A stretch of 15,723 nucleotides of DNA, taken from the IMG/VR virus record IMGVR_UViG_3300022758_000053, positions 1 to 15,723 of that record; one strand, given 5' to 3'. The position numbers and the translations under genes are program-made. Numbering within the stretch: position 1 is the stretch's first letter; each line of letters begins with the position of its first letter. The DNA comes from a virus. Under the pieces are notes generated by a model. The model saw only the letters and a program-made list of their open reading frames with translations. It was not told the origin of the DNA and did no database searches. Positions 1-13,977 of this stretch are shown piece after piece.

Positions 1-103
1 CACGGCATGAGCTATGTCGAAGCTGCTAGGACAACGCTTGTTGAATTTGAGGTATATAATACCGCCTACGCTATTAAACAAGAGGACATCCGCTTTAACG
101 CAG

Positions 104-943
104 CTATTCAAGCATGGTATAACCAGAATCAAGTGTGCCATCGTTTTGAACTTTAGACAAAGTAGCTTGGTCTGCGATTTTAAGGCGCAAGTTAGTGCCG
201 TTTGGAATACCGTACACCAAGCCGTTGAAGTTACCAGTAATCAATGTACCTGTTGGGTAAGTTTGGCCGTCTTGCAATTGAAGTTGAGAATATGGAAGAC
301 CATCAAGCTCACCGATTGCGTTAGGGTTAGCTGGCTTAGTGAAGATGTGTTGACCACCGTTCACGCTGTCCACGATTCCACGGAGTGTGCGGTTGATTGT
401 GCGGTGCCCCACGAATGCGTTAGGTTCTTTTTCTGACTTGTCCTCAACATCGTAGATATTATTGAGGTTGATGTCACCAGATACGATGTTCTGAGCACGT
501 TTAGCAGACGCCAAAACGTTAGCGCCGAATGGGTTGTTATACAAGCCAAGGAACGCCGCCCCGTCGATTTTCTTGTTGAACAAGTCAACAATCTTGTCTT
601 TGATCGATTCAAAGAAGTTAGTCCAAGTGTAGTTGAGGACTTCTTCTGTAACTGGCAAGATAACTGCCAATTTACGAGATTCAAGAACGTAAGATTTAGT
701 TTGTACTTTTGCAGTACCGATTTTTTGACCTTCACCAACAAAGTAAGCGTCTGTCAATTGACCAACTTCTACGCCTTTACGAACCATTTTACCGTTCATT
801 TCAACTTTTTGACCAAGCTGAATGACTTTTGAAGTTTTTACAAGTTCGTCAGTGAATAGATCAGTGATGTATTCTGATGTAATCTCTTTTCCAAGAGAAT
901 CAGACAAGAGGACTGTGTCCGGATTGAATTTTTGTTGAGCCAT
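104..943 (-). CDS. Major capsid protein (279 aa)
   Basis: Complete ORF with an ATG at 943 and an AGGAG 5 nt upstream. It sits directly downstream of the scaffold gene, the usual position in SPP1-like head modules. Its size and composition fit a siphovirus major head protein. Confidence 0.8.
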   Translation of the reverse strand: MAQQKFNPDTVLLSDSLGKEITSEYITDLFTDELVKTSKVIQLGQKVEMNGKMVRKGVEVGQLTDAYFVGEGQKIGTAKVQTKSYVLESRKLAVILPVTEEVLNYTWTNFFESIKDKIVDLFNKKIDGAAFLGLYNNPFGANVLASAKRAQNIVSGDINLNNIYDVEDKSEKEPNAFVGHRTINRTLRGIVDSVNGGQHIFTKPANPNAIGELDGLPYSQLQLQDGQTYPTGTLITGNFNGLVYGIPNGTNLRLKIADQATLSKVQNDGTLDSGYTMLE

Positions 944-961
944 GCGCTCTCCTTTCTTAGT

Positions 962-1513
962 TTAGAAATTAGTGATTTTGGCTTTATCAAACTTGTCTTT
1001 TCCACGGTGAGAACGCCCTTCCTCTCCACCACTAGTGCGAGGTGGTAGAGCTTTAGCTTCTTCTCGTTTCTGCAAGTTTAGGATGTTAGCCATGTTTGAA
1101 ACAGCTAGCTTAGTAGCTTCTTCATCGCCTTTGACTACGAATGCAAGCGTTGACTCATTGACAGGCACGCCTTGAGCTTCGAGCTCTTTAATAGCGATAT
1201 CCTGCATTTGACGTTGAACGATCTGAGCTTGAAGTGCTGCAATTGTGCTCTGGGCTTCTTCGAATTCTTTATCCCGCTGTTTCTGTTGCAGCTCTTGAAG
1301 TTCTTCTTCACTCATTTTAGCTTTAGCAACAGCTTCCTCGATTTTTGCTTGAATACCGGTTTGCATATCAGCAATTTCAAGAGTGTGTTTCTCTTCCATC
1401 TGTTTGAGTCTACGCTGCATTTCAGCAACTGACACCATCTTCTCCTCTTTTTCTGGTTGGCTAGCTTCAACCTCTTGAGGATTCTCAACTGTTTCAAGTT
1501 CTTTTTCTGCCAT
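962..1513 (-). CDS. Capsid scaffolding protein
   Basis: Acidic, E/K/Q-rich 183-aa protein predicted to form coiled coil. It lies between the minor head and major capsid genes. ATG at 1513 with AAAGGAG upstream. Confidence 0.8.
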   Translation of the reverse strand: MAEKELETVENPQEVEASQPEKEEKMVSVAEMQRRLKQMEEKHTLEIADMQTGIQAKIEEAVAKAKMSEEELQELQQKQRDKEFEEAQSTIAALQAQIVQRQMQDIAIKELEAQGVPVNESTLAFVVKGDEEATKLAVSNMANILNLQKREEAKALPPRTSGGEEGRSHRGKDKFDKAKITNF

Positions 1514-1599
1514 GATAGGCTCCTTTCTTTACGCTTTTACGAGCAACCCCCTCGAACTCATGCAGCTTTTAACGTCCTCAGCACGGTCTGGACAAGAGC

Positions 1600-2556
1600 T
1601 TACTCGCCCCAAACACCGTTAACAGCTTCTTCGTCAAGAGTGCTGCCACCAGCTTTATATTCCATTTTGATATGTCCATACGCTGAACAGCGACAGTTAG
1701 GGTGCATTGGGTACATGTTAACCCCTTTCTCTGCCTTGTTGATTGGTATGGCCTTCCTATCAAGGGGCTTACAGATATCACAAGCCCCACTTTCAGCAAC
1801 ATAGATTAAATGTGTGAAGTCATTCTCCTTCAGCATCATCAATTCTGTATCAGCATTAATGCGAGCTATTTCGGTCTTGAGCAATCGTTGGGCGTTGGCT
1901 TGGCTTGTGTTATATTTCTTAGCTAATCGTTGCCGTTCCTGCTTAAAACCGTCCATGTCGGTGAAGATACGTGCTAACGAGCTAAACACATCCTTCTGCA
2001 TGTTTGCACGAAGTCCGTTCCTGCCCCAAACTCTGCGACTAAAATTCTGACCGTAGAAATCAGCGTCTAAAATTGCTCTCATACGACTTACCGCATTGAC
2101 AGCAGAATTGCCTAAGATACCCGCTTGGCGCTTAAATTCAGCTAAATATTCACTCTCACGCGCTTTATCGAAGACTTCGTTAACATCTGATATAAGACTA
2201 GCTATTTCAAGCCTTAATTCTGCTTTGAGTAGCTCCAACCGACTGACTTTCATTTTTAAGTTAAACAGTCTTAGCCATTGATTAGTGCCGTGTGAGAAGT
2301 CCTTCTCGACTACTGCCTTTCTAGCTCGGTCTCTGTACTCAGTAACATCGAACTCATTAGCTCGCTTCATAGCTTCGGCACGGCTTAGCCCCTCTTTGTC
2401 AGCGTAGCGCATGTAAAAGCCGTTTATTTGGCTCTGCATACGGTTATATGACGCTTGATAAAGCTCTTTTAAGACCTTGTCACGCTCTATGTCACGCTTG
2501 ATTAGGTCTGATTGCGCTTTTCTCTCGGCATTGTAGCGTTCATTATTCGTCATCAT
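1600..2556 (-). CDS. Minor head / head morphogenesis protein, SPP1 gp7 / Mu F family
   Basis: The C-terminal motif ...CDICKPLDRK...NMYPMHPNCRCS is typical of the gp7/MuF family. It lies immediately after the portal gene. The ORF track starts at GTG 2565. I prefer ATG 2556 (AGGTG 6 nt upstream), which overlaps the portal stop codon. Confidence 0.85.
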   Translation of the reverse strand: MMTNNERYNAERKAQSDLIKRDIERDKVLKELYQASYNRMQSQINGFYMRYADKEGLSRAEAMKRANEFDVTEYRDRARKAVVEKDFSHGTNQWLRLFNLKMKVSRLELLKAELRLEIASLISDVNEVFDKARESEYLAEFKRQAGILGNSAVNAVSRMRAILDADFYGQNFSRRVWGRNGLRANMQKDVFSSLARIFTDMDGFKQERQRLAKKYNTSQANAQRLLKTEIARINADTELMMLKENDFTHLIYVAESGACDICKPLDRKAIPINKAEKGVNMYPMHPNCRCSAYGHIKMEYKAGGSTLDEEAVNGVWGE

Positions 2557-4042
2557 CCTCAACACCTACAATCTGACTAACTTCTAGATCAGTAGCCCCG
2601 CCCTCTTCGAGCAAACGGCTCTTTTCTTTGCGAGCGTCTGTGAAGCTAGCTGATTCCATAAGCGTCTCTTGTGAGATTTCCATGCCGGAATTGATAGCAG
2701 ATTGAATCTCAGCCCATACATCCGTTGGCAGGTTCTCATGGAACGTAAATGTCAGCATGTCAGCGTCCACTGGTTCGATACCTTTGAGATTGTTAGATAG
2801 CAACTCAAGCAGCTTATAGCGTCGTCTGAGCGCCTTGACAAAGAACCCACGCTTAACGGCTGTAACTTGCTGCAAATCAACTAGCTTGTAGCGGATAGCG
2901 ATCCCAGACGTAGCTGAGAAAGTCGAATCGTCTTGCAAGTTAGGCAATCCAACAATGCGGAAGAAGTCTTTAATCAAACGTGATTTATACGCTTCGACAC
3001 CGCTGACATCATATTGTTTGTAGATATAGCCGGCATCTAGTGACGTTTGCTGCCCGTTGTGTCCGACACCACTCTCAAGTACTAGCATGTTAGCGTGCTT
3101 CATTTTCATGATGTCAGACGCATTCATGCCAGTACTTTCGACATCACCCTTGATAACCAGCATGGCATCGTTAAGGTCTGACATGTAGTTAGCTGTGTCC
3201 GACTCTGCTGCGTCGTAAGCGTCAATGATTGGAATCCCTTTCTCCCAATCTCCCGAACGCTCTCGGTTATTCTGCCATTCAACTACCGGCACCATTCCGA
3301 ACGGGTTTTCTTTACGCTCGATTTCCTGCCAGTTTGGATCATAGCTGACAATCTTGCTATCAGTGTAGACCGTGACAAACATTTCACCGTTGTACACTGG
3401 GCAATGAACAGCCGCAATGATATCTTTTCGGACGTCTGCGCTACGGATTGTGAACATCTCCCTTGCATCAATCAAGACCACTGCTGGATTGCCAAACTCA
3501 TCATAATAATGCAGCTCAAACGCTCGCCCAAAACGTGAAGCGTCATAGACTAACTCACGGTTAAGAGCTTCAATGTCGTTGTAAGCGTTGAAGTCATCAA
3601 TAGCCGTCAAGTCGCTGTCAGTGTCAGTAGCACCAATTGAAATAGGTTGACCCACCGTATAACCAGTGAAGAAGCGGCTAGCTTGTCCGCCCAGATCATG
3701 CCTAATACGGTAGTCAGCTTTCTCTGGCTCTAGTCGTTTACGACCATTTAGAATGGTGTAGTTGTTCCCGTTTGAGTAGCTCTCTAGGATATTCAAGCGG
3801 TCTATCTGTCCATCTTGGAACTGAGCTACCATCTTCTCTAACTTCTCTCGCCCTTGAAACGTGTCCACTAGGTCATCCGCTGATTGAGCCATGAAGTGGG
3901 TGTTAGCTTCTTTGGGAAAATGAAGGAAGTCTTCACGTTTCTGCAAGCTAGTCGGTTCCATGTCTCGCTCGAATTGGTATGATCTAGGAATGTACTGTCC
4001 TTCATGTAAAATGTCGTCAGCACTATGTGTTGTGTTCGTCAT
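2543..4042 (-). CDS. Portal protein (SPP1 gp6-like)
   Basis: A 499-aa ORF directly after terL, with stop TAG, one nucleotide, then ATG, and AAGGAG upstream. Its size, acidic C-terminus and position fit an SPP1-type portal. Confidence 0.9.
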   Translation of the reverse strand: MTNTTHSADDILHEGQYIPRSYQFERDMEPTSLQKREDFLHFPKEANTHFMAQSADDLVDTFQGREKLEKMVAQFQDGQIDRLNILESYSNGNNYTILNGRKRLEPEKADYRIRHDLGGQASRFFTGYTVGQPISIGATDTDSDLTAIDDFNAYNDIEALNRELVYDASRFGRAFELHYYDEFGNPAVVLIDAREMFTIRSADVRKDIIAAVHCPVYNGEMFVTVYTDSKIVSYDPNWQEIERKENPFGMVPVVEWQNNRERSGDWEKGIPIIDAYDAAESDTANYMSDLNDAMLVIKGDVESTGMNASDIMKMKHANMLVLESGVGHNGQQTSLDAGYIYKQYDVSGVEAYKSRLIKDFFRIVGLPNLQDDSTFSATSGIAIRYKLVDLQQVTAVKRGFFVKALRRRYKLLELLSNNLKGIEPVDADMLTFTFHENLPTDVWAEIQSAINSGMEISQETLMESASFTDARKEKSRLLEEGGATDLEVSQIVGVEDDDE

Positions 4043-4043
4043 T

Positions 4044-5324
4044 CTATCTCCTTATCAATTTGTTAACCCGTCTAATCTTAGCGTCTACATCCTGCCTATC
4101 CTTGACGAAAATAAGGTTCTGCAGTGCGTACCTAATCGCATCGATACAGTGGTTATAGCTATCGCATGGCTTGTTGATGTACTCGTTTGTATACTTATCT
4201 TTCTGCCATGTATAGTTTTCAAGCTCTTCAATCGTCTTGACGCATCTTTCATCAACGATTATGTCGAATTGCTGCAGGAACTGAATCCCTTGTAGAACTG
4301 AGCCTTTGCCCTTGTCTACCGGAATAGCTCGACGCAAGCCCAGCGTTTGCAATTCAGCAATGGATTTCTGTTCCGCCGAGTCGGCCATAATCACCTCTTT
4401 TGAATAACCAAGGCTAGTAATAGCTTCTGCTATCTGGTTGTTAAGCAAGCCCTTTTTGACATACTCCTCTAGGATATATAGCCGCTTATTCTCTCGGTCT
4501 ATTTTGACGTGCATAAACGCCGTGGGGTCGTTTGTAAAACCAAAGTCAAGACCAAAAAAGGACGGTAGCTGTTTAAGCTCGTCCTTATTGAGCAATTTCT
4601 TTTCGTACTTTGGAAATACTAACTTATCGAGGGTGGCAAACTCACCCAAAGCATAGATTTTGTAGTAGGCTTCGTTTCGGTTGGCTAGCTCCTCGATATT
4701 CTCCTTGGTCAAGTCATCCAGAAAGCGATTATCCTTGTACGTCGTTTGATAAACCACTGTATTCTTAGGGCTCTTCACAAAGAATGCGTTATATACCCAG
4801 TTGGCCTTAGACACTGGGTTGAACATCAAATAGATTTGTTTTTGTTTGTGAGCCTTGTCCCTCAAGCGAAGTGTTAGCTGTGTGTAATCATCAAGCGTAA
4901 ACTCTGACGCTTCTTCCATCACAACGTCTGAAATGCCTTTGATAGACTTGATTTTCTCTGGGTTATCCATCCCTTTAAAAATCAGTTCAGCTCCGTTTGG
5001 TAATTCAATACGGAATGCGCTCATGTTAACCTTGCATAGATTAAGCACACCGAAATAGGACAAGGCTGCTTGCACATCCGCAAACACCGAGTCACGAACC
5101 GTAGAGCCTACTTTTCGCAATATCAATATTTTTCGGGGTTTATCCCACTTTTTAAGAGCCTTGAGGACTATTTTTTGGAAGACGCCGTGACTCTTACCGC
5201 TAGATGCTCCGCCGTAGTGTACCTCGGTGAATGTGTCATAATCAAATAGATGTTCATAGATATGCCGATTAAACACCTTGCTTGGATTGATTTCAAGATT
5301 AATCGTCATTCCATTCACCGACAT
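4044..5324 (-). CDS. terL: Terminase large subunit
   Basis: Walker A motif HYGGASSGKSHGV near the N-terminus and a C-terminal nuclease-domain signature (CDSYNHCIDAIRYAL). The start overlaps the terS end. An alternative start is ATG 5309 (MTINLE...). Confidence 0.92.
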   Translation of the reverse strand: MSVNGMTINLEINPSKVFNRHIYEHLFDYDTFTEVHYGGASSGKSHGVFQKIVLKALKKWDKPRKILILRKVGSTVRDSVFADVQAALSYFGVLNLCKVNMSAFRIELPNGAELIFKGMDNPEKIKSIKGISDVVMEEASEFTLDDYTQLTLRLRDKAHKQKQIYLMFNPVSKANWVYNAFFVKSPKNTVVYQTTYKDNRFLDDLTKENIEELANRNEAYYKIYALGEFATLDKLVFPKYEKKLLNKDELKQLPSFFGLDFGFTNDPTAFMHVKIDRENKRLYILEEYVKKGLLNNQIAEAITSLGYSKEVIMADSAEQKSIAELQTLGLRRAIPVDKGKGSVLQGIQFLQQFDIIVDERCVKTIEELENYTWQKDKYTNEYINKPCDSYNHCIDAIRYALQNLIFVKDRQDVDAKIRRVNKLIRR

Positions 5325-5742
5325 TAATATTGATATCTTGCGTTACATCAGCTTCGACCTTATCTGTCCACATCCTATAGCGCTTACCGATATCAACTGC
5401 CGCAGCCCGACGAGTAGCTACATTCGGTTTAGCTTGAGCAATGCGTTGCATACCCTCACCATCCAGGACAAGCAAGGGTTCTTCAACCTCACCACGCATG
5501 ACGGCAGTGAGAAATTCCATGACCTCTTGTTGATCCGCAACACGTTCCGATTTTAATTGTTCCAGTCGTTCGTCTATATAAGCCTTGACCTCAGTATTTC
5601 TTAGTAGCTTACTACCATTGACTTCTGCCGTCCTTATCTTCTTAATACTAGGATAAGCCTTTTTGTACGCCTGCGTAGCGTTTAGGCTGATGATGTACTC
5701 ATCGGCAAACTTTATTTGTTTTTCGGTCATCCCATTTTCCAT
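5299..5742 (-). CDS. terS: Terminase small subunit
   Basis: N-terminal ...MTEKQIKFADEYIISLNATQAYKKAY is the usual small-terminase HTH signature. The ORF track starts at TTG 5781. I prefer ATG 5742, which follows GAAAGGAG. ATG 5730 is also possible. Confidence 0.8.
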   Translation of the reverse strand: MENGMTEKQIKFADEYIISLNATQAYKKAYPSIKKIRTAEVNGSKLLRNTEVKAYIDERLEQLKSERVADQQEVMEFLTAVMRGEVEEPLLVLDGEGMQRIAQAKPNVATRRAAAVDIGKRYRMWTDKVEADVTQDININVGEWNDD

Positions 5743-5747
5743 CAACT

Positions 5748-5767
5748 CCTTTCTGATCCTTTCTGAT
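5748..5767. repeat. Exact tandem 10-mer x2 (plus-strand CCTTTCTGAT; minus-strand ATCAGAAAGG) spanning the terS ribosome-binding site
   Basis: Read directly from the sequence. The duplication gives two SD-like GAAAGG motifs upstream of the terS ATG. Confidence 0.7.
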
Positions 5768-5849
5768 ACTGAAAAAGACAACCCACAAAGTGAGCTGTCT
5801 CTGATTTTCTTCGATAATATAATAATACCACCTTAAACAGTTGTTAGAC

Positions 5850-5887
5850 ACCGTGAATTAACCGTTGAAATACCGTTATTTCAACGT
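5850..5887 (-). promoter_or_regulatory. Four direct A(C/A)CGT motifs (plus-strand reading) spaced exactly 11 bp apart, between arpU and terS
   Basis: Plus-strand ACCGT at 5850, 5861 and 5872, and AACGT at 5883. On the minus strand this reads ACGGT x3. An AT-rich TATTAT/TATATT stretch follows in the direction of transcription. This is a candidate late-promoter activator site or pac-region binding site. Confidence 0.35.
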
Positions 5888-6297
5888 TCCACAACTAATT
5901 TGCCATCTCTATACAATTCTGCAAATGCTAGGATAGCATTATTTAGCAATTCTTGAAAAGCCGTCCTCTCGAATCCGATTGCCTGGGCGATTTGCCAGTT
6001 TGGTTTCGGAGGGTATGCCAGATATTTCTCTATCAGTATTCTGCGATAGTCTGGACGATATAGCCCGCTAACTGCTTGCTCTATGGCTTCTAGCTCGTTC
6101 ATAGCATCAACACGCCTAACTGCGATATTTTCCACTGGTCTGCTCACTCCGCTACCACCTCGTGGCATGAAGGTAAACTCTTGTGTGATCTTCTGCTCAG
6201 CGCTATCGTGTGCTATCTCTCGCCATCTAGGGTATTCTCGAAGTTTTCGCTTGCAACGTTTGATAGTTGCTTTTTCATCAATTTCCGGCAATAGCAT
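5881..6297 (-). CDS. arpU: ArpU-family phage late transcriptional regulator
   Basis: A 138-aa ORF with MLLPEID..ATIK..KRKLREYPRW... and C-terminal ...IAQAIGFERTAFQELLNNAI, a sigma region-4-like HTH. It lies immediately upstream of terS, as ArpU/RinA regulators usually do. ATG 6297 with AAGAGGA 7 nt upstream. Confidence 0.85.
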   Translation of the reverse strand: MLLPEIDEKATIKRCKRKLREYPRWREIAHDSAEQKITQEFTFMPRGGSGVSRPVENIAVRRVDAMNELEAIEQAVSGLYRPDYRRILIEKYLAYPPKPNWQIAQAIGFERTAFQELLNNAILAFAELYRDGKLVVER

Positions 6298-6311
6298 TGT
6301 TCTATCCTCTT

Positions 6312-6320
6312 TGGTATAAT
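6312..6320 (+). promoter_or_regulatory. Extended -10 promoter-like element TGgTATAAT on the plus strand
   Basis: TG at 6312-6313 and TATAAT at 6315-6320. There is no good -35 element. A transcript from here would be antisense to the arpU leader. Confidence 0.25.
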
Positions 6321-6344
6321 AGTAGTGTTGATTTTCAAAGAGTG

Positions 6345-6368
6345 CCGGCCATTATGTCGGTCTTTTTT
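6345..6368 (+). terminator. Plus-strand hairpin with T-run (CCGGC-cattat-GTCGG tc TTTTTT)
   Basis: A 5-bp stem including one G-U pair (6345-6349 with 6356-6360), followed by T6 at 6363-6368. The stem is weak. Confidence 0.3.
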
Positions 6369-6461
6369 GTTTGGCCCAAAAAACATTAAGAAGTTTTATA
6401 AGGGAAAGATTAATGTATTTGTTTTTGGGTTGTTTCTTGGGCCTTTTATCACCTCCTTCTA

Positions 6462-6494
6462 GCCAAGACACCAGCAAGATCTTTGGCTTTTTTT
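6462..6494 (+). terminator. Plus-strand hairpin with T7 run (GCCAAG ... CTTTGGC TTTTTTT)
   Basis: About 6 bp of stem (6462-6467 with 6481-6487), a large 13-nt loop, and T7 at 6488-6494. Confidence 0.3.
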
Positions 6495-6669
6495 AGTAAT
6501 GCGATATCGATAAGAAAGAGGGTGTTTCACATCCTTTTCTCTTAAATTTGCCGGGTTTTTGTTGAGCAAGGTCTGTCAGCTTGCTCGGTGTTGAAAAGTG
6601 TTCAAGCCACTAAAAATCTATATTCATTTTTTTTAGCTTCATTTTTTATTTTTAGTGTTTGACAGACAA

Positions 6670-6714
6670 TGGCTGGCAAGAGGAATCGAACCCCTTGAGT
6701 AACCACTCCAGCCA
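6670..6714 (-). ncRNA. tRNA-like minihelix 1: acceptor stem, D-loop-like bulge and T-arm, with no anticodon arm
   Basis: The minus strand reads TGGCTGG-AGTGGTTACT-CAAGGGG-TTCGATT-CCTCTTG-CCAGCCA. It has a perfect 7-bp outer stem, a 7-bp inner stem with one G-U pair, and a canonical GGTTCGATTCC T-loop. The 10-nt bulge AGTGGTTACT resembles a D-loop. Confidence 0.5.
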
Positions 6715-6999
6715 GATATAGTGAAATCATTTTTTTGGAGATTTTCCTCCTTCGTTTTTGAAATAATACAAGAATTATGGAGATTTCTGACCTATATCCA
6801 ATTGCAGGCATAAGCCTTGGATAATCACGCTACCAGTATGAGCGTTTTAGATTTTGTAAAGATAAAAATAAAGGATACCTACTTTCTATATTTTAGATTT
6901 ACTGGATTTGGGTAGCGTCAACGACCAGTCACGCTTCCGCTGATTTGAATGAAAAGAAATCAAAAGGCTCCTCTTTTCTAATTTATATTGACTGGTAAT

Positions 7000-7030
7000 A
7001 GCTAGTAAGGGAGTCGAACCCTCACTAGCT
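7000..7030 (-). ncRNA. tRNA-like minihelix 2: 7-bp acceptor-like stem stacked directly on a 5-bp T-arm
   Basis: The minus strand reads AGCTAGT-GAGGG-TTCGACT-CCCTT-ACTAGCT. This is a 12-bp helix with one G-U pair, capped by a canonical GGTTCGACTCC T-loop. No D arm or anticodon arm can be placed. Confidence 0.45.
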
Positions 7031-7087
7031 ACATGCCTAACGCATAGGCTTTATACAAGGCTTTTCTGACCGTAATTTTATTACGCC

Positions 7088-7735
7088 CTAACTCGCCTTT
7101 TTACGATATTTCAGAATAATTCTGCCAATCTCGTCATCTAACCTTTCAGGCCACTCATAATGATTGAAGACACAATCAACAATCTTACTGAATAGCTCTC
7201 TTGACAGCACGCCTTCCATTTGAATGGCCTTCAAAGGAGTTAAAGCAGCCTTCTCTAAATAACACTGATTGATGGCGTTTTGGGTTTTGTTAGCTTTCTT
7301 CTTATCGCACCCTTTAATATCTCTAATGTACTTGTTTAGGTCGTTAGGGTGTTCCTTGCGTAGCCCTTCCACTTCCTCACGGAACTCCTGGAATAGCTCC
7401 GCTGGCAGTCCTGCGTTGGTTTTATCCAAAACTGGGCGCGTGGTTTTACCTCTTGTGTAATTCTTGGATAGATATGCTTTAAGGTCATGATATAGCTCAT
7501 CAGAAATGATGCCTTTCAGTCTATCGACTGTTTGAGGTGAGATTCTCTGACGCTCCACGACCGCATTATTGAGTGCTTGCAAAATGATAATCGCTTGTTT
7601 CTCGCTGCACTGTCTCACTTTTTGGAAATGTTGCTTGTAATCTTTCGGATGTGCCTCTTTAAGTGCTGCATGTTCATTGATCAACCGTTGATGTAGCTCC
7701 TTGGTCAGTCCAGCATATTTGTAGGTTTTGCTCAT
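7088..7735 (-). CDS. Hypothetical protein (215 aa) made of two tandem copies of a roughly 95-aa domain
   Basis: ATG 7735 overlaps the upstream stop as ATGA. The track's longer N-terminal extension overlaps the previous gene. The internal repeat AGLTKELHQ...KEAHPKDYK...C..K.A / AGLPAELFQ...RKEHPNDLNK...C..K.A is visible by eye. Confidence 0.75.
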   Translation of the reverse strand: MSKTYKYAGLTKELHQRLINEHAALKEAHPKDYKQHFQKVRQCSEKQAIIILQALNNAVVERQRISPQTVDRLKGIISDELYHDLKAYLSKNYTRGKTTRPVLDKTNAGLPAELFQEFREEVEGLRKEHPNDLNKYIRDIKGCDKKKANKTQNAINQCYLEKAALTPLKAIQMEGVLSRELFSKIVDCVFNHYEWPERLDDEIGRIILKYRKKAS

Positions 7736-7980
7736 GAGCTCCGCTCCTCTATCGCTTGGCAGTCTGCGATATATCCCTCTAATGTTATTCCAACGGCTTC
7801 GAACGGAGCGTATTCGCACACAGTTCTCTTAACCACCATTGTCGTAAGCGCTCTTGTATTTCTTGGACCTCTACCGCAAATAATAGCTACATCTCTCCTA
7901 AAGCGATCTCGCTCGAAAGCCATATCATAAAGTTTTGAGACGTTTCTCATTACCGATTTTTTTAATTGTCGTTTGTTCAT
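7732..7980 (-). CDS. Hypothetical protein (82 aa)
   Basis: ATG 7980 overlaps the HNH stop as TAATG, and its own stop overlaps the next start as ATGA. No family was recognised. Confidence 0.65.
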   Translation of the reverse strand: MNKRQLKKSVMRNVSKLYDMAFERDRFRRDVAIICGRGPRNTRALTTMVVKRTVCEYAPFEAVGITLEGYIADCQAIEERSS

Positions 7981-8525
7981 TATTCCACCTCTGCCAGTTC
8001 TGGATTCTCGTAGATTCTATTTCTAATAGTTGACCAATCGCACCCGTAATGTGATGCAATCCAATTTATTGATTTACCTTCGACTAAGAATGTTTTTAAC
8101 TCTTCTAATGGGATTGAAATGCGCTTTTTCATTTTTAAGCCTTTTCTATTATGATTTGCCATGCTTATTTTTCTCCTGTGAGACTCTGAAAAAACACGTC
8201 CTTTATTATGTTTGCTATTATGAGCTTTATTCAATATCAAAGATAAATTTTCTTTTCTTGCATCTAACTTATTCTCATTCAAATGATGTACGCTATATTC
8301 AAATGGAATTCTTGTTCTTAGCCAATATTGCATTAAAAGCCTGTGCACATGAATCTTTTCGTTATGAATTGAAACAGCAGGGTAGCGACCGTGCAAATAT
8401 ATTTTTTTCTTGCTTAAAGAAGGTTTTTTCTGATACCACAGAATTGCCTTCTCTAATTCAGAATAATCAACAATACACTTACATTCATTGTCGAACTCAA
8501 TTTTCTTCTGTATTTTCAACGTCAA
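7980..8525 (-). CDS. HNH endonuclease with a C-terminal HTH
   Basis: HNH core ...VHHLNENKLDARKENLSLILNKAHNSKH and a C-terminal HTH-like INWIASHYGCDWSTIRNRI. No ATG lies upstream of the HNH core. I place the start at TTG 8525 (GGGAGG about 12 nt upstream), with TTG 8519 as an alternative. The track's start at 8669 would overlap yopX by 173 nt. Confidence 0.75.
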   Translation of the reverse strand: MTLKIQKKIEFDNECKCIVDYSELEKAILWYQKKPSLSKKKIYLHGRYPAVSIHNEKIHVHRLLMQYWLRTRIPFEYSVHHLNENKLDARKENLSLILNKAHNSKHNKGRVFSESHRRKISMANHNRKGLKMKKRISIPLEELKTFLVEGKSINWIASHYGCDWSTIRNRIYENPELAEVE

Positions 8526-8928
8526 GTAACTCACCGTCCTCCCATATATTCCCGATGATTTCAACTTCGAAGATATCTGTGTTAAACAAGTCGTATAGAG
8601 GGGATTCTTCGATTTCTCTTTTGATTTCCTTGGAAACAAACATCGCCTTGTTGTTGTTAAAAGATACAACTTCCAACCAGCTTGATAGGTTGGTCACTTT
8701 AAGAATATCCCCCTCAAAGATTTCTTTGCCATTCTTGTCTCTGAGGCCAGTTGATTGCATTAAAACACAATCATCGCTCTTGCACATCCAAGTGATAGCG
8801 TCTCCGATGAAATCAAACTCGCCATTAAAGAAATTAATTTCTTCCACATCTACCATTTCTTTATCTTCTTTAAGCCACGCTCTAAATCTTAACAAAACCA
8901 CCACGCTCCTCCCATTTTTCTTTGGCAT
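8497..8928 (-). CDS. YopX-family protein
   Basis: Contains RFRAW...MQSTGLRDKNGKEIFEGDIL, the characteristic YopX signature. The start is uncertain. ATG 8928 overlaps the upstream HNH by 47 nt, and GTG or TTG codons just after a GGGAGGAG at about 8896-8903 are alternatives. Confidence 0.85.
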   Translation of the reverse strand: MPKKNGRSVVVLLRFRAWLKEDKEMVDVEEINFFNGEFDFIGDAITWMCKSDDCVLMQSTGLRDKNGKEIFEGDILKVTNLSSWLEVVSFNNNKAMFVSKEIKREIEESPLYDLFNTDIFEVEIIGNIWEDGELLDVENTEEN

Positions 8929-9328
8929 GAAGTCTTGAGTGTTCCGAAAATGACATCAATTCAATATTTTCGGGACTATTATCTAGTTTATTTTCATTTA
9001 CATGATGTGCAACTTCATTATTTTTCAAAAACCTTCCTAATTTATTCTCCAATACTAATCTATGTTTTCCAACATACCCTGATTTCATGGCATTGGGGTG
9101 TTTAGGCATGTAAATGTATTCATATCCACTAATAATGACGCTCTTTTTATAAGACCTTCTCCTAACACCTAACTGTGAGCAAGATTGACTGCACGCAGTT
9201 AATCTGTTACCTTCCCCTGTTGGTCTAATAACAAGAGATCCACATTTAGGACATTTGAATAATGAACAATACTCTAACCTTTTTCTGTTGTTGATTCTCA
9301 TTCTTCCTAACCTTTTGATTAGTATCAT
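8882..9328 (-). CDS. HNH endonuclease with an N-terminal Cys-rich (zinc-ribbon-like) region
   Basis: Contains CPKCG...C..SC and AHHVNENKLDNSPENIELMSFSEHSRLH. ATG 9328 overlaps the upstream stop as ATGA. It is a paralogue of the HNH at 7980-8525 (shared HH-x-NENKLD...EN). Confidence 0.85.
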   Translation of the reverse strand: MILIKRLGRMRINNRKRLEYCSLFKCPKCGSLVIRPTGEGNRLTACSQSCSQLGVRRRSYKKSVIISGYEYIYMPKHPNAMKSGYVGKHRLVLENKLGRFLKNNEVAHHVNENKLDNSPENIELMSFSEHSRLHAKEKWEERGGFVKI

Positions 9329-9621
9329 TGCCCTCTCCCTTTCAAATAGCTAGGGATGTCATCCCCAACATTCGCTTGGTCATACTGTTCCTTGCTTACT
9401 AGAAACTTCCCGTAAGCTCCGCAATCAATAGTGTAGAGATCATTAATTTTCTCTTTCCCGGTAACCTTGCCATACATTTCAGAACCAGCGTTATCTACCC
9501 GATGGATAGTTACTGTCTCTACCCTGCGTGGCACTGTCAGAACGTAGTAGACTGACAGCATGTTGATAGCTAGTGATACTAGTAGTATGATTGTAGCTAT
9601 CGTTAAATCTTTATGTTTCAC
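9325..9621 (-). CDS. Small membrane-anchored phage protein (DUF1372-like)
   Basis: N-terminal transmembrane helix (LTIATIILLVSLAINMLSVYYVL). GTG start at 9621 with AAGGGG 7 nt upstream, overlapping the end of the methyltransferase gene. The family assignment is from memory only. Confidence 0.65.
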   Translation of the reverse strand: MKHKDLTIATIILLVSLAINMLSVYYVLTVPRRVETVTIHRVDNAGSEMYGKVTGKEKINDLYTIDCGAYGKFLVSKEQYDQANVGDDIPSYLKGRGQ

Positions 9622-10366
9622 TCATAAACCCCTTATATACCTTTTTTAAAATCTCGCAAACCAAACTCAGAGGAATGTTTGACCTCTCATTATAGGATTT
9701 CGTCCAATCTTGAAATTTGATGTCATTTGACTTCTTTTCATTTTTAAGATTCAACTCAATGTTTCCAGAAAATCGAGTTGGTTTAGAAATCGGATAGTCG
9801 TCATAATTGTTGTATCTTGTATGATTTTCAAACGGGATTTCGAACCCCAGCACTCTCTCGATGTATTGCCAAATTCTGCCATGAGCTGGGTTCTCTATGA
9901 TCCAATATTTGGGCTTGTATCGTTTGATGATTTCGACTGTATTGAACACACACAATTCACCATTGATTCGTTTCATAAGTTGTTTATTTGGGTAGTATTG
10001 ATATCTGTCATAATCCTTATGATCACGAACGGTAAATATCGACAAGGGTTCTTGTGGTTGAAATAAAGAGTCACCTTGCTCTTGTTTCCAACAAGCATTT
10101 CCTCTATCCATGGCGCTAGCGTTAGACCAACTTTCACACGGTGGGCTAGCGATAATCAGATCAGGTTTAGGCAATTTGTCCAATGTGTCAAATAGTGTGT
10201 TATTTCCAAACAAACGGCTATAATCAGCTAAATTCAGATTGATAAAATGATGATTTTTATTTTCGATATCAATACCTATTGGATAGATTTCAATATCTTT
10301 GCCCAGTTTCTTTACACCTTTTGTGTATGATCCGTTTCCACTGTCAAACAATGCCCAGACAATCAT
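9611..10366 (-). CDS. Compact C5-cytosine DNA methyltransferase-like protein (251 aa)
   Basis: Several motifs resemble the C5-methyltransferase set. ALFDSGNGS resembles motif I (FxGxG), ASPPCESWS resembles motif IV (PC), IIENPA resembles motif VI (ENV), and RSNIPLSL resembles motif X (GNxVP). ATG 10366 lies 1 nt after the upstream stop with GAGGAAG upstream. Confidence 0.6.
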   Translation of the reverse strand: MIVWALFDSGNGSYTKGVKKLGKDIEIYPIGIDIENKNHHFINLNLADYSRLFGNNTLFDTLDKLPKPDLIIASPPCESWSNASAMDRGNACWKQEQGDSLFQPQEPLSIFTVRDHKDYDRYQYYPNKQLMKRINGELCVFNTVEIIKRYKPKYWIIENPAHGRIWQYIERVLGFEIPFENHTRYNNYDDYPISKPTRFSGNIELNLKNEKKSNDIKFQDWTKSYNERSNIPLSLVCEILKKVYKGFMSET

Positions 10367-10367
10367 C

Positions 10368-10886
10368 CTAGAGGTCTTCCTCTTTGACGAAAGTGCCATT
10401 AATCATCTTTCCCTTTCTATTCTTAATCTCCTCGTAAGCAATACCGAGACACTCGGTCACATCAAGGTCTAGTTGATGCGCTAGTACGATAATCGTTACC
10501 AGCGTGTCACCGATAGCATCCTTGAGTGCTGCTTGTGGCTCAGCGAATTTCGTTGGTTTCAAGAGTACATCCCGAATCTCTCCGACTTCCTCAGTGATAC
10601 GCATCCACTGTATTTTCGGGTCAGCTTGTTTTAATCCACGGCTATCTGCCCAATGATTGATGCAGCGAACAAGTTTATCAAATTTTCCTTCGAACAATGT
10701 TTCATTCCCTAAAACTTCTATGATAGTCACCCCAAAATAGTCAGCAATTTTTTTGGCACTGTGCATTGTGGGCCAGTATTCCCCCGATTCGAACTTACGT
10801 AACACAGATTCTGAGAATCCTACTTCATCGGCCAGTTCCGATATGGTTAATTCCTTTTTCAGCCGTAGTCGTTGAATTTTATTCAT
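10368..10886 (-). CDS. Fusion protein: XRE-type HTH with a MazG-like NTP pyrophosphohydrolase domain
   Basis: The N-terminal part, LKKELTISELADEVGFSESVLRKFESGE...AKKIADYFGVTIIEVLG, is an XRE HTH. The C-terminal part, ITEEVGEIRDVL...LKDAIGDTLVTIIVLAHQLDLD...YEEIKNRKGKMINGTFVK, is a MazG-type all-alpha NTP-PPase. ATG 10886 overlaps the upstream stop as TGATG. Confidence 0.8.
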   Translation of the reverse strand: MNKIQRLRLKKELTISELADEVGFSESVLRKFESGEYWPTMHSAKKIADYFGVTIIEVLGNETLFEGKFDKLVRCINHWADSRGLKQADPKIQWMRITEEVGEIRDVLLKPTKFAEPQAALKDAIGDTLVTIIVLAHQLDLDVTECLGIAYEEIKNRKGKMINGTFVKEEDL

Positions 10887-11395
10887 CACTCCACCTCTTT
10901 CACTTCCACGCCCGGGCAATCGAATATCCAGCCAAAATCAGCTTCTTCTAGCTCTTTGCGGGTGTGGGCTCTACTTTGCGTGTATATGTTATTGTAAAAA
11001 CGCAATCCGTTAGTGCCTGTTTTCACTAACCAATCTCCGCCCCCATCTTTCTTCTTGAGTTTAACCGTATATCTAGCCTCTTTCTCTACCTCGTAGCCAA
11101 ACTGGTGCATGTTGACTAGGATATTAAACGGTCTTGTTTTGCTACTGATCAACCATTCTTGGAAGTCAGTTAGACCGCCACAATTGTAATTTTTTTCAGT
11201 CTGGCAGACCTCTCGATACAGATTTATCTCAAACTCATCCTTATGCCCCTCATACCAATCTGCCACACACGGCGGTACCACTGGTTTTGGGAAAAACGAG
11301 TCATATAGGTCTTCTGCGTAAGATACCGAACCGCCAGATATCCTTGATATTGTCCGCACTGCTTCTTCTCGACTTACTGCTTCTTGTCTATCCAT
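10886..11395 (-). CDS. DUF1642-like phage protein
   Basis: A 169-aa ORF with KPVVPPCVADWYE..., a motif I associate with DUF1642 proteins of Streptococcus and Lactococcus phages. ATG 11395 overlaps the upstream gene by 8 nt. Confidence 0.65.
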   Translation of the reverse strand: MDRQEAVSREEAVRTISRISGGSVSYAEDLYDSFFPKPVVPPCVADWYEGHKDEFEINLYREVCQTEKNYNCGGLTDFQEWLISSKTRPFNILVNMHQFGYEVEKEARYTVKLKKKDGGGDWLVKTGTNGLRFYNNIYTQSRAHTRKELEEADFGWIFDCPGVEVKEVE

Positions 11396-11597
11396 TGTTT
11401 TCTCCCTCTAGCAAAATCTTTTCTAACTGCTCAATCGTTTCGGTTCTTACATAAATCCGATTTGTCCCGTCTGCGAACGGCGTTTTTACAAAAATGATAT
11501 TAGGGCCAATAGAGATGTGCCCGATATCATCGACATTTAAAATTGTGTCCATATCAATTCCTTGTGCGATGTTTGTAACTCTAATAAATTTAGCCAT
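11388..11597 (-). CDS. Hypothetical protein (69 aa)
   Basis: ATG 11597 is preceded by AAGGAGG with a 6-nt spacer. The track's longer form (start 11651) lacks an RBS and overlaps the upstream ORF. Confidence 0.6.
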   Translation of the reverse strand: MAKFIRVTNIAQGIDMDTILNVDDIGHISIGPNIIFVKTPFADGTNRIYVRTETIEQLEKILLEGENNG

Positions 11598-11841
11598 TAC
11601 TAACCTCCTTTGACTCCACTTCATGGCACTTGCTACCGCCATACTTAGCACCTTGTCTGTGAAACTCGTTCAGTGCCTTATTCTTGTCCTTGTATTGAAT
11701 ACGTTGGTATAGCTTGCCATTCTCAAATACTGATACCGCCCAACTCATTTCATGCTCCTTAATTCCCATAGTTATCGGTTCCGGCCCTTCTCTGAAAACC
11801 TTTGCCGGATTCTTTGCTATAAATCGTCTTAACCATTGCAT
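11590..11841 (-). CDS. Hypothetical protein (start uncertain)
   Basis: ORF in the operon frame. ATG 11841 has a poor RBS. The internal ATG 11748 (MSWAVSVFENGK...) follows AAGGAG with a 6-nt spacer and may be the true start. Confidence 0.5.
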   Translation of the reverse strand: MQWLRRFIAKNPAKVFREGPEPITMGIKEHEMSWAVSVFENGKLYQRIQYKDKNKALNEFHRQGAKYGGSKCHEVESKEVSNG

Positions 11842-12068
11842 AGCTCGACCATCTTTCTTAACAAGCCTTCATCCGGTAACTGCTCTAGTGTCAAAATCCG
11901 ATTGAGCTTTTTTGCGTTGATTCCCAACTTAGCGCTGATATATTCCATATCTTCGTGGTTAGCCCAGAACCATTTCGAAAACTCTTGCGTTTGACCTAAT
12001 ACGCTTGTGTGGTCGTAACTGCCCGGCGCATACACACCAACCAACTTATCTTTATATTTGCTGTTCAT
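11829..12068 (-). CDS. Hypothetical protein (79 aa)
   Basis: ATG 12068 overlaps the rusA stop as ATGA. No family was recognised. Confidence 0.65.
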   Translation of the reverse strand: MNSKYKDKLVGVYAPGSYDHTSVLGQTQEFSKWFWANHEDMEYISAKLGINAKKLNRILTLEQLPDEGLLRKMVELCNG

Positions 12069-12526
12069 TCAAGCTCCTTGATTTCAAGTTCAATGCGTGG
12101 GTTAGGACTGTACTTCTTACGAGCTCTCAACTCGCAAACAATGCTGTCATCCGTCCAGACGATACCCTTCTTATCAACTTTGTTGTAGCCAGCTTTTGAA
12201 ATACTGTCAAAGAGCGATTTGACCAGATTATCAACGTCTGGAGTTTTCGCATGCCAAAGTGTTTCAGACATGAACCGCTTGAACGCATCCCACGTTTTAG
12301 CCCTTGCTTTTGGCGTTGGTTTCTTCGATACATTCAGCGGGGCTTTCATGTAAAATACGACATCGACTGAGATAGGACCGTCGTAGAATTGTCCGTCATA
12401 TTCTTGCTCGATAAGTTGCGAACATTGACGACGCCATGCCTTCATTTTAGGGTCTTCGTAAGTTCCGAATTTGCTGAATCGTGGCCTTGTTTGAGGTTTA
12501 GGCTCAATGTTTAAAATCATTTTCAT
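12065..12526 (-). CDS. rusA: RusA-family Holliday junction resolvase
   Basis: Contains EPKPQTRPRF..., ...KTPDVDNLVKSLFDSI... and ...VWTDDSIVCEL, which match the RusA catalytic-Asp signature pattern. It is 153 aa long. Confidence 0.85.
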   Translation of the reverse strand: MKMILNIEPKPQTRPRFSKFGTYEDPKMKAWRRQCSQLIEQEYDGQFYDGPISVDVVFYMKAPLNVSKKPTPKARAKTWDAFKRFMSETLWHAKTPDVDNLVKSLFDSISKAGYNKVDKKGIVWTDDSIVCELRARKKYSPNPRIELEIKELE

Positions 12527-12538
12527 GTTTTCACCAAA

Positions 12539-12994
12539 TCAGAAGGGTAGATCTGAATCTTGGATATCCATAGGGTTTGAATTACCAAACGGATTGCCGT
12601 TATTTTTTGAATAACTTGGCGCTTGCTGTTGAGATTGATTATAACCACCGTTAGCATTGCTACCTTCACGCGCTGCACGGCTTTCTAACATTTGAAAGTT
12701 CTCAGCAACCACCTCAGTCACATAGACTCTTTGACCTTGCTGGTTCTCGTAGCTGCGAGTCTGGATGCGTCCAGTAATCCCAATCAATGCGCCTTTTTTA
12801 GCCCAATTAGCCAAATTCTCGGCTTGCTGACGCCAGATAACGCAGTTGATAAAGTCTGTTTCACGTTCGCCGTTAGCATCCTTGAAATTGCGGTTAACAG
12901 CTAGGCTAAACGTAGCTACTGCAATGTTACTGGTCGTGTATTTTAGTTCGGGGTCACGGGTTAGGCGCCCAACTAGTACGGTCGAATTGATCAT
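12539..12994 (-). CDS. ssb: Single-stranded DNA-binding protein
   Basis: [20 protein letters not shown]... OB fold, a Gly/Gln/Asn-rich linker, and the acidic tip ...DIQDSDLPF. The ATG overlaps the upstream stop as ATGA. Confidence 0.95.
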
Positions 12995-13974
12995 TGATTT
13001 TCTCCTAGAATTTCATAATTTACAAAGTTGTCATCCAACAGCTTAGCGAATTGATGCCACTGATTCTCTCCGCCGTGGAAAGTTAGTGAAAGATTGACCT
13101 TGTACGGTTCAGCGGGTTTGCTAGGCACTTCCTCGACAGGCTTAGTGTCTTCGATAACCTCGCCTGTTTCAGCATTTACTGCTTTGATTTCCTTGTTAGC
13201 TGACTGTTGGGCCATTGCTTCAATCTCTGCTAGACGTGCCGCTTCTGCTTTTTGTTTGGCTTCTGCTTGCTGCTTGCGTTCAATAGCTGCATCACGGTCC
13301 TTCTTCATTTGCTTGACAACTTCAACTAGAGGTGTGCCAATTTGCAATAATTTGATATATAGCTCTGCCGGTAGTTCATAATCAAGAGCTTGTTCTTCAA
13401 TCATGGCAATGTTGGCCTTGTATTCCTCAAGTCGGTCATACTCAGCCAAAACCAATGCGTCAATCTTTTCTTCTGTCGCTTTTTTGAGCTTCATTTTCTT
13501 ATCCATGAAATCTCCGACTTTAGAAAAGCTCTCGTACTTGTCCTTGAATGTATCCTTGTCTAGTCCGGCTAGCTCACACTTACTTTCAAAGACTGATCTA
13601 ACGTGGTCGATTCGCAGCATTTTTTTGTGTTCTTTGACTTCATCACGTTTAGCGCGCAACTTGTCAAGAAGTGCATTCAATGGCTCTAGCGAGGTCGCTA
13701 GTTTAGATTCAAACTCGGTGAGTGGGTCTTTGTAGATTCTGCCAATTTCCTTACGCTTGTCATCCAGTTTGTCGCCAAGCCCTTTGAAACGAGTAATTTC
13801 TTTTAAGACCTCGTCATATTCAAGCTGGTCCAGTTGCTCGTCTGATAGCTCGCTAACTGCCGCTTGAATAGCTGCATCGAATTTGTCAAAGTCGAAGTTA
13901 ATCGTCCCCGGTGTATAAACCGGCTCGATTGTTTCCAAGAAATTGTTTGTTGCGTTGTTCGTTACGTCCTTCAT
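12991..13974 (-). CDS. DUF1351-like coiled-coil phage protein, accessory to the recombination module
   Basis: A 327-aa, E/K/A-rich coiled-coil protein located between erf and ssb. DUF1351 proteins occupy this position in lactic-acid-bacteria phages. The family call is from memory. Confidence 0.6.
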
Positions 13975-13977
13975 GTC

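Follow-up and report, generated by a model that had tools for sequence, protein, structure and literature searches.

Our analysis identifies a conserved RNA architecture in the large gap between the DUF1340 gene and the gene for an ArpU-like protein (arpU) in a Streptococcus phage, IMG/VR virus record IMGVR_UViG_3300022758_000053 (positions 1 to 15,723; this whole stretch of 15,723 nucleotides (nt) is called the window). All long open reading frames (ORFs) of the window lie on the minus strand, here called the gene strand. The architecture shares this orientation, shows covariation and is syntenic among related phages. It is made of two tandem paralogous modules of ~200-260 nt each, which comprise, in this order, an acceptor/T-arm minihelix without CCA, a 3-nt spacer, an 8-nt trailer, a downstream hairpin whose apical loop is complementary to the trailer, and a closing helix. 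A preliminary description, drawn up from the window alone, had offered as its fallback reading an undescribed structured element at the switch from early to late genes. This reading is well supported, since compensatory changes were found in four helices and the element is kept in syntenic phages. As to its function, we favor, at somewhat below an even chance, a cis-acting RNA in which the minihelices serve as sites for RNase P and RNase Z and in which a pseudoknot shields the new 5' end of the arpU leader.

tRNA-like minihelices and their downstream pairing partners

A covariance model built from 62 long-form copies of the minihelix finds exactly two matches in the window, one of 54.5 bits at 6989-7039 and one of 63.4 bits at 6660-6722. 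Both are minus-strand matches, and the next best one reaches 10 bits; the two T-loop elements reported earlier are thereby confirmed. Minihelix A is a continuous 12-bp helix formed by AGCTAGTGAGGG (7030-7019) and CCCTTACTAGCT (7011-7000) and closed by the T-loop TTCGACT (7018-7012). It does without the D-loop-like linker present in most relatives, as do some B copies elsewhere. Minihelix B combines a 6-bp acceptor (GGCTGG, 6713-6708, with CCAGCC, 6676-6671), a 10-nt linker containing a near-invariant GG (AGTGGTTACT, 6707-6698) and a 7-bp T stem (CAAGGGG, 6697-6691, with CCTCTTG, 6683-6677) that carries the T-loop TTCGATT (6690-6684). The long form occupies both sites in most relatives, with a linker of the type AAYGGTTnnn whose GG is nearly invariant, and the T arm GG-TTCGA(N)T-CC is invariant or near-invariant in the 62 elements. 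What both copies have in common is a coaxial acceptor/T minihelix with a canonical T-loop; the D-loop-like GG linker is optional, and D stem, anticodon arm and encoded CCA are all absent. The hallmarks of a tRNA T arm, a G53-C61 pair and a T54-Psi55-C56-R57-A58 loop stacked on the acceptor stem, are present in the minihelices. They represent a truncated tRNA-like fold with a coaxial acceptor/T minihelix that would be embedded in a longer transcript, and it has no flanking gene-strand terminator.

The pairing of the minihelix is backed by compensatory change. In a MAFFT alignment of the 62 sequences the acceptor stem is 97% paired, and four of its six pairs are compensated (AGCTAG/CTAGCT, AGCCAG/CTGGCT, GGCTGG/CCAGCC, GACTGG/CCAGTC, GACGGG/CCCGTC, GGCGAG/CTCGTC and GGCGTG/CACGTC). 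The combination GGCTGG/CCAGTC is frequent; its G·U pair would become a C·A mismatch in an RNA of the opposite strand. Among 46 loci fetched by means of the DUF1340 protein alone, 45 have at least one copy on the gene strand directly after DUF1340. In this set 93.9% of the cells are paired, compared with 36-50% when the partner columns are slid, and 7 of the 12 pairs have changes on both sides. Across all tests 94-98% of the minihelix cells are paired, against 31-58% in the slid controls.

On the 3' side of the acceptor strand follow a purine in the discriminator position, TT(R) and the 8-nt trailer, the last spacer base being at the same time the first trailer base (A6996 in copy A, G6667 in copy B). 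The trailer of copy A, ACCAGTCA, meets its complementary loop TGACTGGT ~60 nt downstream, and that of copy B, GTCTGTCA, meets TGACAGAC after 30-110 nt. Three of the eight positions of this helix differ between its two paralogous versions, in each case with a compensating change in the pairing partner. Counted among distinct units, the trailer/loop combinations TCTGTCA/TGACAGA (101) and CCAGTCA/TGACTGG (22) are Watson-Crick paired throughout, CCAGTTA/TGACTGG (4) and TCTGTCA/TGACAGG (3) contain a U·G pair, and CCTGTCA/TGACAGG (1) has the C-G pair that completes a series of U-A, U·G and C-G; three units are mismatched, one of them being the recombinant described below. RNAalifold, run without a hint on 26 diverse unit-2 regions, predicts the long-range trailer-loop helix, which is 100% paired there. 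Complementarity between a hairpin loop and a distal strand that is kept by compensatory change is what would be expected of an H-type pseudoknot.

The only clear exception to this complementarity is found in locus L052 (470-510), where the unit-2 hairpin carries a unit-1 loop sequence (CTGACTGGC) and the trailer is still TCTGTCA; this locus is probably a recombinant.

Two further helices of the module vary in a comparable manner. The loop of the downstream hairpin (P3) is invariant (GCTGACAGACC), and its stem occurs in at least five fully compensated versions (GAGCAAG/CTTGCTC, GGACAAG/CTTGTCC, GTCAAG/CTTGAC, GTCGAG/CTCGAC and GCATCG/CGATGC), with double changes at 6 of 7 pairs. The closing helix (P4) covaries at two positions via G·U intermediates: CCAGCAA/TTGCTGG (54), CCAGTAA/TTGCTGG (24), CCAGTAA/TTACTGG (14), CCGGCAA/TTGCTGG (2), CCGGCAA/TTGCCGG (2) and mismatched (2), all counted from motif pairing tables because two sequence types are out of register in the corresponding MAFFT alignment (A4). 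In the minihelix, the trailer-loop helix and P4, wobble intermediates are of the G·U kind on the gene strand only, which assigns the structure to an RNA transcribed from that strand. Covariation is also seen in the small hairpin at 6737-6750, which reads GGGG/CCCC or GGAGG/CCTCC in relatives. The coordinates of all features are collected in Table 1.

Table 1. Features of the gap and of the adjoining genes, in gene-strand order.
Feature	Position	Strand	Basis or remark
DUF1340 gene	7088-7819	-	Pfam E = 4.5e-69
Out-of-frame 3' end of DUF1340 gene	7029-7087	-	Alignment of 32 relatives; A5 versus A6 comparison with contig L006
Minihelix A (short form)	7000-7030	-	Covariance model 54.5 bits; fold z = -4.3; covariation
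Discriminator A6999, spacer TTA (6998-6996), trailer 1 ACCAGTCA (6996-6989)	6989-6999	-	Pairs with loop 1
Orphan Shine-Dalgarno-like AAGAGGAG	6968-6975	-	~25 nt past predicted RNase Z site; alignment
Unit-1 hairpin AGCGT/ACGCT	6914-6935	-	Loop has TGACTGGT (6931-6924), complementary to trailer 1
Unit-1 closing helix P4, CCAGTAA (6905-6899) with ATACTGG (6839-6833)	6833-6905	-	Encloses Shine-Dalgarno-like hairpin region; homology with unit-2 P4
Small hairpin GGAG-GAAAAT-CTCC	6737-6750	-	Alignment
Minihelix B (long form)	6671-6713	-	Covariance model 63.4 bits; covariation; GG(T) invariance
Discriminator A6670, spacer TTG (6669-6667), trailer 2 GTCTGTCA (6667-6660)	6660-6670	-	Pairs with loop 2
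Hairpin CACTAAAAAT...ATTTTTAGTG, A-rich loop	6608-6657	-	Loop 2 to ~35 nt among relatives
Unit-2 hairpin P3, GAGCAAG/CTTGCTC	6564-6586	-	Invariant loop CTGACAGAC (6579-6571); TGACAGAC (6578-6571) pairs with trailer 2
Unit-2 closing helix P4, CCGGCAA (6554-6548) with TTGCTGG (6477-6471)	6471-6554	-	Encloses Shine-Dalgarno-like hairpin (AAGAGAAAAGGATGTGAAACACCCTCTTTCTT)
Orphan Shine-Dalgarno AAGGAGGTGAT	6448-6458	-	No start codon at proper distance
Long hairpin GGCCCAAGAAACA...TGTTTTTTGGGCC, 13 bp	6373-6443	-	Pairs better on gene strand, using G·U
Intrinsic terminator GCCGGCCATTATGTCGGT, then CTTTTTT	6338-6372	+	Scan; hairpin 6344-6361
Perfect extended -10 TGGTATAAT (gene strand: ACTATTATACCA)	6312-6320	+	Invariant across relatives, even where downstream gene differs
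ArpU-like gene, 138 amino acids	5881-6297	-	
terS	5299-5781	-	
terL	4044-5324	-	

The gap had been delimited as 790 bp free of ORFs (6298-7087). A gap between DUF1340 and arpU is real, but its first ~60 nt belong to a gene end and a 69-amino-acid ORF lies inside it. A run of A residues at 7095-7100 (minus strand) has five residues in the window and six in the near-identical contig L006, to which L004-L009 are identical across this stretch. In all relatives the DUF1340 frame is 21 codons longer (...KALYKAYALG[M/V]*) and ends at a TAG at 7031-7029 that overlaps the first bases of minihelix A. From this extension we take 7029-7087 to be the frameshifted end of the gene, which would leave a truly non-coding stretch of about 6298-7028. 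The 1-nt deletion that truncates DUF1340 in the window probably arose either very recently by mutation or as a sequencing error in the homopolymer. A hairpin that looks "anticodon-like" (GCCTATGCGTTAGGC) falls within this frameshifted coding sequence. On the minus strand, the 69-amino-acid ORF (6602-6811) extends across the second T-loop element; it is not coding, because stops or frameshifts break it in 16 of 17 aligned relatives; it is intact only in the near-identical L020. Small ORFs called "hypothetical protein" or "membrane protein" have been placed in the gap of GenBank/RefSeq records, where they overlap conserved RNA helices (e.g. 380-583 and 983-1282 in the record of phage P0092, L002); by analogy with the non-conserved ORF of the window, these may well be mis-annotations.

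Compared with shuffled sequence, the gap folds with z = -4.1 on the minus strand and z = -3.0 on the plus strand, and the many helices noted before are there, at lengths of 7-14 bp. The presence of orphan Shine-Dalgarno (SD) sequences was likewise borne out: SD-like sequences without a conserved ORF are located at 6968-6975, 6742-6753 and 6448-6458. No conserved ORF follows AAGAGGAG, and the indels of relatives behind it are not multiples of three. A TTG-initiated frame of 25 codons after the SD-like sequence SD1 was rejected as a gene, as indels of 1-3 nt disrupt it in relatives.

A possible processing site ahead of the late activator

ArpU-type activators turn on the packaging, morphogenesis and lysis genes of many Gram-positive phages, and to our knowledge the timing of their own expression is poorly understood. 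The acceptor/T minihelix is the domain recognized by RNase P, RNase Z and the CCA-adding enzyme. In the mRNA decay of Gram-positive bacteria, a helix close to a 5'-monophosphate end blocks RNase J, and so does an SD-like sequence that lacks a start codon (STAB-SD). In the cis-acting scenario that we favor, the gap would be transcribed as an internal untranslated part of an early polycistronic RNA that reaches from DUF1340 to arpU. Host RNase P would cut on the 5' side of each minihelix, which for minihelix A means directly behind the first base of the DUF1340 stop codon (U/AG), and RNase Z would cut after the discriminator and before the conserved UU(R) (in the minihelix of phage 2972 the predicted site is at nt ~107-108, before TTAGTCTGTCA). 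The 8-nt trailer would then pair with the apical loop of the downstream hairpin, so that the new 5' end would be only ~2-3 unpaired nt away from an 8-bp helix and hence be shielded from the 5'-exonuclease RNase J; the SD-like sequence ~25 nt past the copy-A site could shield in the way a STAB-SD does. In this way the arpU leader would be uncoupled from the early mRNA, and the amount and timing of the late activator would be set.

Several observations fit this scenario. Primary-transcript RNA-seq of phage 2972 detected only an early and a middle promoter and placed ArpU in the early cluster (PMC11551762), and our scan found no gene-strand terminator between DUF1340 and arpU. Given both, transcription through the gap most likely takes place within the early polycistronic RNA. 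The tRNA genes of Streptococcaceae are all CCA-less, their transcripts are cut by RNase Z immediately behind the discriminator, and U is the first base of the mapped trailer (PMC8549757); the conserved R-UU(R) after the minihelix matches this. In Bacillus subtilis, CCA-less precursors with long leaders are processed first by RNase P and then by RNase Z (PMC1874595).

A number of points weigh against RNase P/Z processing with a protective pseudoknot. Minihelix B stacks 13 bp and not 12, the first copy is decayed in Streptococcus thermophilus phages, and some copies have acceptor mismatches. An RNase P cut inside the DUF1340 stop codon would yield a non-stop mRNA, which seems costly. The recombinant L052 and two CCAGTAA variants break the complementarity of trailer and loop, and an 8-bp helix that takes nearly all of a 9-11-nt loop is sterically tight. 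Finally, both the A-rich loop and the direct repeats TTTT(C/T)(G/A)ACAC between trailer and P3 stand outside the account that the RNA model gives.

Because of this tight geometry, trailer-loop pairing and P3 could be alternative states instead of a simultaneous pseudoknot. This would fit a different explanation, namely a riboregulator of read-through or translation into arpU, in which trailer-loop pairing and P3 (and P4 with the orphan SDs) would alternate in response to a factor bound at the tRNA-like elbow, for instance a phage or host protein or the ribosome, and which would need no cleavage. The invariance of loop and trailer amid varying stems, the conserved SD-like sequences without ORF within the modules and the position immediately upstream of the late activator all speak for it. 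Yet the gene strand has no evident terminator/anti-terminator pair, the modules are 170-700 nt away from the arpU start codon, and about one third of the relatives do without the first module; we regard such a riboregulator as rather unlikely. Quite unlikely, in our view, is a role in trans, for which the minihelices would be set free as mini-tRNA-like RNAs, small, stable and tailed with CCA, and would decoy or inhibit host factors that recognize the acceptor/T domain (tRNA-targeting defense toxins, RNase R/SmpB or type III CRISPR accessory nucleases, for instance). Their architecture is exactly the domain that RNase P, RNase Z and the CCA-adding enzyme recognize, the element is retained in virulent phages such as 2972, and an anti-CRISPR of a staphylococcal phage relies on tRNA/tmRNA fragments that it binds (PMC11662646). 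However, the acceptor sequences vary freely and hold no conserved identity element, and trailer, P3 and P4 are conserved as much as the minihelix, which argues for a role in cis. A narrower version, to which we give a slim chance, is an RNA-only anti-defense device in which minihelices excised by RNase P/Z and CCA-tailed decoy elbow- or acceptor-recognizing host factors, and the pseudoknot tunes their release; such a device would be conserved in nearly all S. thermophilus phages, and candidate targets would be abortive-infection toxins that modify or cleave tRNA, and RNase R or degradosome nucleases co-opted by type III-A CRISPR. Just as slim is the chance that the conserved entity is DNA, i.e. 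a secondary replication origin, a protein-binding array (iteron-like TTTTCGACAC/TTTTCAACAC repeats, A-rich tract) or a recombination linker between early and late genes. The direct repeats and the A-rich tract after the B trailer would suit such an element, as would the hybrid A/B elements, which reflect recombination between copies, and the joining of the same gap to different arpU types. On the other hand, the compensatory changes pass through G·U, which would be A·C on the other strand, strict orientation and a canonical T-loop favor RNA, and the predicted origin of phage 2972 lies elsewhere, downstream of the replication module (PMC13575424).

The preliminary description had also considered a decayed tRNA cluster and the large GOLLD and ROOL RNAs, and neither proposal held up. 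A derivation of T arm and acceptor stem from tRNA is clear, and neither ARAGORN nor the Rfam models call a tRNA, just as would be expected of functionless remnants of tRNA genes. But the two paralogues and hundreds of phages share the same truncated design, compensatory changes accompany the conservation of its tRNA-like parts, and no relative has an intact tRNA at the site: ARAGORN reports 0 tRNA and 0 tmRNA in the window, and 0 tRNA both in the 46 DUF1340-fetched loci and in ~140 streptococcal loci assembled later. Over 176 loci, its only tRNAs are in unrelated jumbo-phage or bacterial loci that match the DNA pattern by chance. Mere remnants are thus highly improbable. GOLLD and ROOL agree with the gap in context only, as here too a Lactobacillales phage has a large region free of ORFs with adjoining tRNA-like sequence. 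With Rfam 15, cmscan gives 0 matches at gathering thresholds in the whole window and neither family at E<=10 on 6100-7300, and membership has next to no chance of being true.

Further candidates from the Rfam scan of 6100-7300 were discarded. Neither tRNA nor Y-RNA-like models match at E<=10, which also disposes of a bacterial Y-RNA-like (YrlA) tRNA mimic. The sole partial matches from the tRNA clan are to tmRNA, and these are T-loop fragments of 13-17 nt with 6.8-8.1 bits against a gathering score of 47 (ARAGORN being negative as well). Matches to snoRNA, isrC, MicX and CrcZ models are noise (E = 0.7-5), and an rseX match at 6272-6368 (plus strand) is merely the terminator hairpin.

One to three direct repeats TTTT(C/T)(G/A)ACAC, spaced by ~10-11 nt, are located between the B trailer hairpin and P3 in the window (6587-6607) and in relatives (e.g. 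L026, 2389-2760). They look like iterons or a protein-binding array.

Distribution and closest known systems

The core of the element in phage 2972 (nt 60-330 of its gap region at nt 1-413, between orf44 and orf1) matches 331 GenBank records of Streptococcus phages, including Sfi21, TP-J34, TP-778L, 9871 and P0092, and its place is always between DUF1340 and arpU. In these records the core is usually unannotated or covered by a spurious "hypothetical protein" label, and the TP-J34 record has six unexplained stem-loops annotated in the gap. The closest complete relative is Streptococcus salivarius phage SA-TP2 (82% identity across 97% of the gap), and the contigs that are near-identical to the window are IMG/VR metagenome contigs. 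In all relatives 440-920 nt separate DUF1340 from the gene that follows, also in those that have a different type of regulator in place of arpU. Among one-per-species representative genomes the element pattern gave 8 matches, one in a Streptococcus metagenome-assembled genome and the rest chance matches to tRNA, with no copies in host chromosomes and no wider taxonomic spread. The family is therefore confined to phages of the salivarius group. We found no description of the element in Rfam or in the searchable literature, to which older subscription papers on Sfi21, 2972 and DT1 do not belong; though hundreds of phages of dairy and oral streptococci share it, it has apparently never been described before.

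About one third of the relatives lack the segment from A to B and have a single hybrid element in its place, which points to recombination between the two copies. Unit 1, missing in these relatives, is dispensable; unit 2 is always present. Short gaps of ~440-480 nt with one hybrid minihelix each are seen in L025, L027, L039, L012, L024, L030, L037 and L038. The hybrids join the 5' part of copy A to the 3' part of copy B, or an A body to a B-type trailer, and some of their acceptor stems are mismatched; repeated deletion of unit 1 by recombination between copies would explain these short forms. S. thermophilus phages combine a decayed first copy with a second one of the short form. In phage 2972 (AY699705; L167, 1-30), nt 1 of the record falls within the remnant T-loop (GGTTCGAAAA) of the decayed first minihelix, so the element is split across the ends of the linear record, and this split may be the reason why it has escaped notice.

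Among known systems, the t-elements of plant mitochondria are the closest documented analogues. They are truncated tRNA-like structures with a GGTTCRANYCC T arm and an acceptor, at which RNase P and RNase Z form the 3' and 5' ends of mRNAs, in some cases within or at the end of reading frames, upstream of stop codons (PMC1920247). The gap minihelices share the truncated tRNA-like form and the same GGTTCRANYCC arm, and they would likewise be embedded in a longer transcript. Unlike the gap element, t-elements are organellar, scattered as single copies, and without trailer-loop pseudoknot, P3/P4 domain or tandem modules. Their cleavage has been demonstrated experimentally, whereas that of the gap minihelices is a prediction. 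A tRNA-like element within a long RNA is also known from mascRNA of MALAT1 and from MEN-beta, where, as Wilusz et al. reportedly found in 2008, RNase P and RNase Z cut the element, the former generating the upstream 3' end, and CCA is then added. The gap minihelices resemble mascRNA in this embedding and in an anticodon arm that is not conserved. However, mascRNA and MEN-beta are eukaryotic and nuclear, and a triple helix protects their upstream 3' end, whereas here a pseudoknot is proposed to protect the downstream 5' end.

With the tRNA-like domain of tmRNA the minihelices share acceptor and T arm, an unstructured D-loop analogue, the absence of an anticodon arm and a similar T-arm sequence. 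The two differ in that the acceptor strands are contiguous here and at the two ends of a ~350-nt RNA in tmRNA, and in that there is neither a tag frame nor an encoded CCA here. Canonical phage tRNA genes between early and late modules are alike in position and orientation and have a 3' trailer of the same CCA-less streptococcal kind; the minihelices lack their D stem and anticodon stem-loop and are missed by ARAGORN and the Rfam tRNA models. GOLLD and ROOL are also large non-coding structured regions in Lactobacillales phages, sometimes next to tRNAs, but the gap shows no similarity to their Rfam models and has a modular, repeated build based on a tRNA-like minihelix. STAB-SD sequences and 5'-proximal stems are said to protect Gram-positive mRNAs from 5'-exonucleolytic decay (reportedly Agaisse and Lereclus in 1996, Sharp and Bechhofer in 2005). 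By analogy, SD-like sequences without a start codon and a helix a few nt from the predicted processed 5' end may act alike here, though in contrast to those stems the helix would be a long-range pseudoknot.

What is new is a large, covariation-supported RNA domain directly before arpU in essentially the whole group of S. thermophilus and S. salivarius phages. Phage 2972, a CRISPR model, and the classical Sfi21 belong to this group. The domain itself goes unannotated or is labeled as spurious small ORFs. The attached pseudoknot domain and the position before the late activator set it apart from known elements of tRNA-like processing or mimicry. Should the minihelices indeed be RNase P/Z sites, they would be the counterpart, in a bacterial virus, of mitochondrial t-elements and mascRNA; tRNA-processing enzymes would then punctuate a phage mRNA, with a pseudoknot guarding the processed end. 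Stranded and primary-transcript RNA-seq of phage 2972 already exists, and the phage can be engineered. The conserved blocks GGTTCGANTCC, GTCTGTCA, GCTGACAGACC and ACTATTATAYCA are possible targets for phage detection, or CRISPR targets resistant to escape, in dairy strains.

The arpU-proximal end and the flanking genes

At the arpU-proximal end, the orphan SD AAGGAGGTGAT is kept in S. thermophilus phages as GGGGGTGATA, and the long hairpin at 6373-6443 is optional, being missing in some relatives. The plus-strand hairpin that had been likened to a terminator proved to be an intrinsic terminator at 6344-6371, with a G+C-rich hairpin (6344-6361) followed by a U tract (CTTTTTT). Its counterparts in relatives have three unrelated stem sequences, each with -10 to -13 kcal/mol and a tract of U6-U9 on the plus strand; folded as gene-strand RNA, they come to no more than -2 to -5 kcal/mol. 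The candidate extended -10 TGGTATAAT is situated 15-20 nt upstream of the terminator on the same plus strand. Read as an arpU promoter on the gene strand, ACTATTATACCA has no usable -35 or TG extension, while the same bases form a perfect TGnTATAAT on the other strand. Taken together, this -10 and the plus-strand terminator suggest an antisense RNA of ~45 nt, predicted to start ~7 nt after TGGTATAAT (~6327) and to end in the U tract (~6368), that could pair with gene-strand RNA immediately before the ribosome-binding site of arpU.

Along the gene strand, genes for YopX and HNH proteins are followed by DUF1340, the gap, the 138-amino-acid gene, terS, terL and portal. The 138-amino-acid protein has no Pfam match; it is 91-100% identical to S. 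thermophilus phage proteins annotated as "ArpU late transcriptional regulator" or transcriptional activator. In the early region, two ORFs with an HNH_3 domain (7980-8669 and 8882-9328, minus strand) lie on either side of the YopX gene, and a further ORF call, 8497-8928, overlaps both. This arrangement suggests that the HNH_3 ORFs are insertions of free-standing homing endonucleases.

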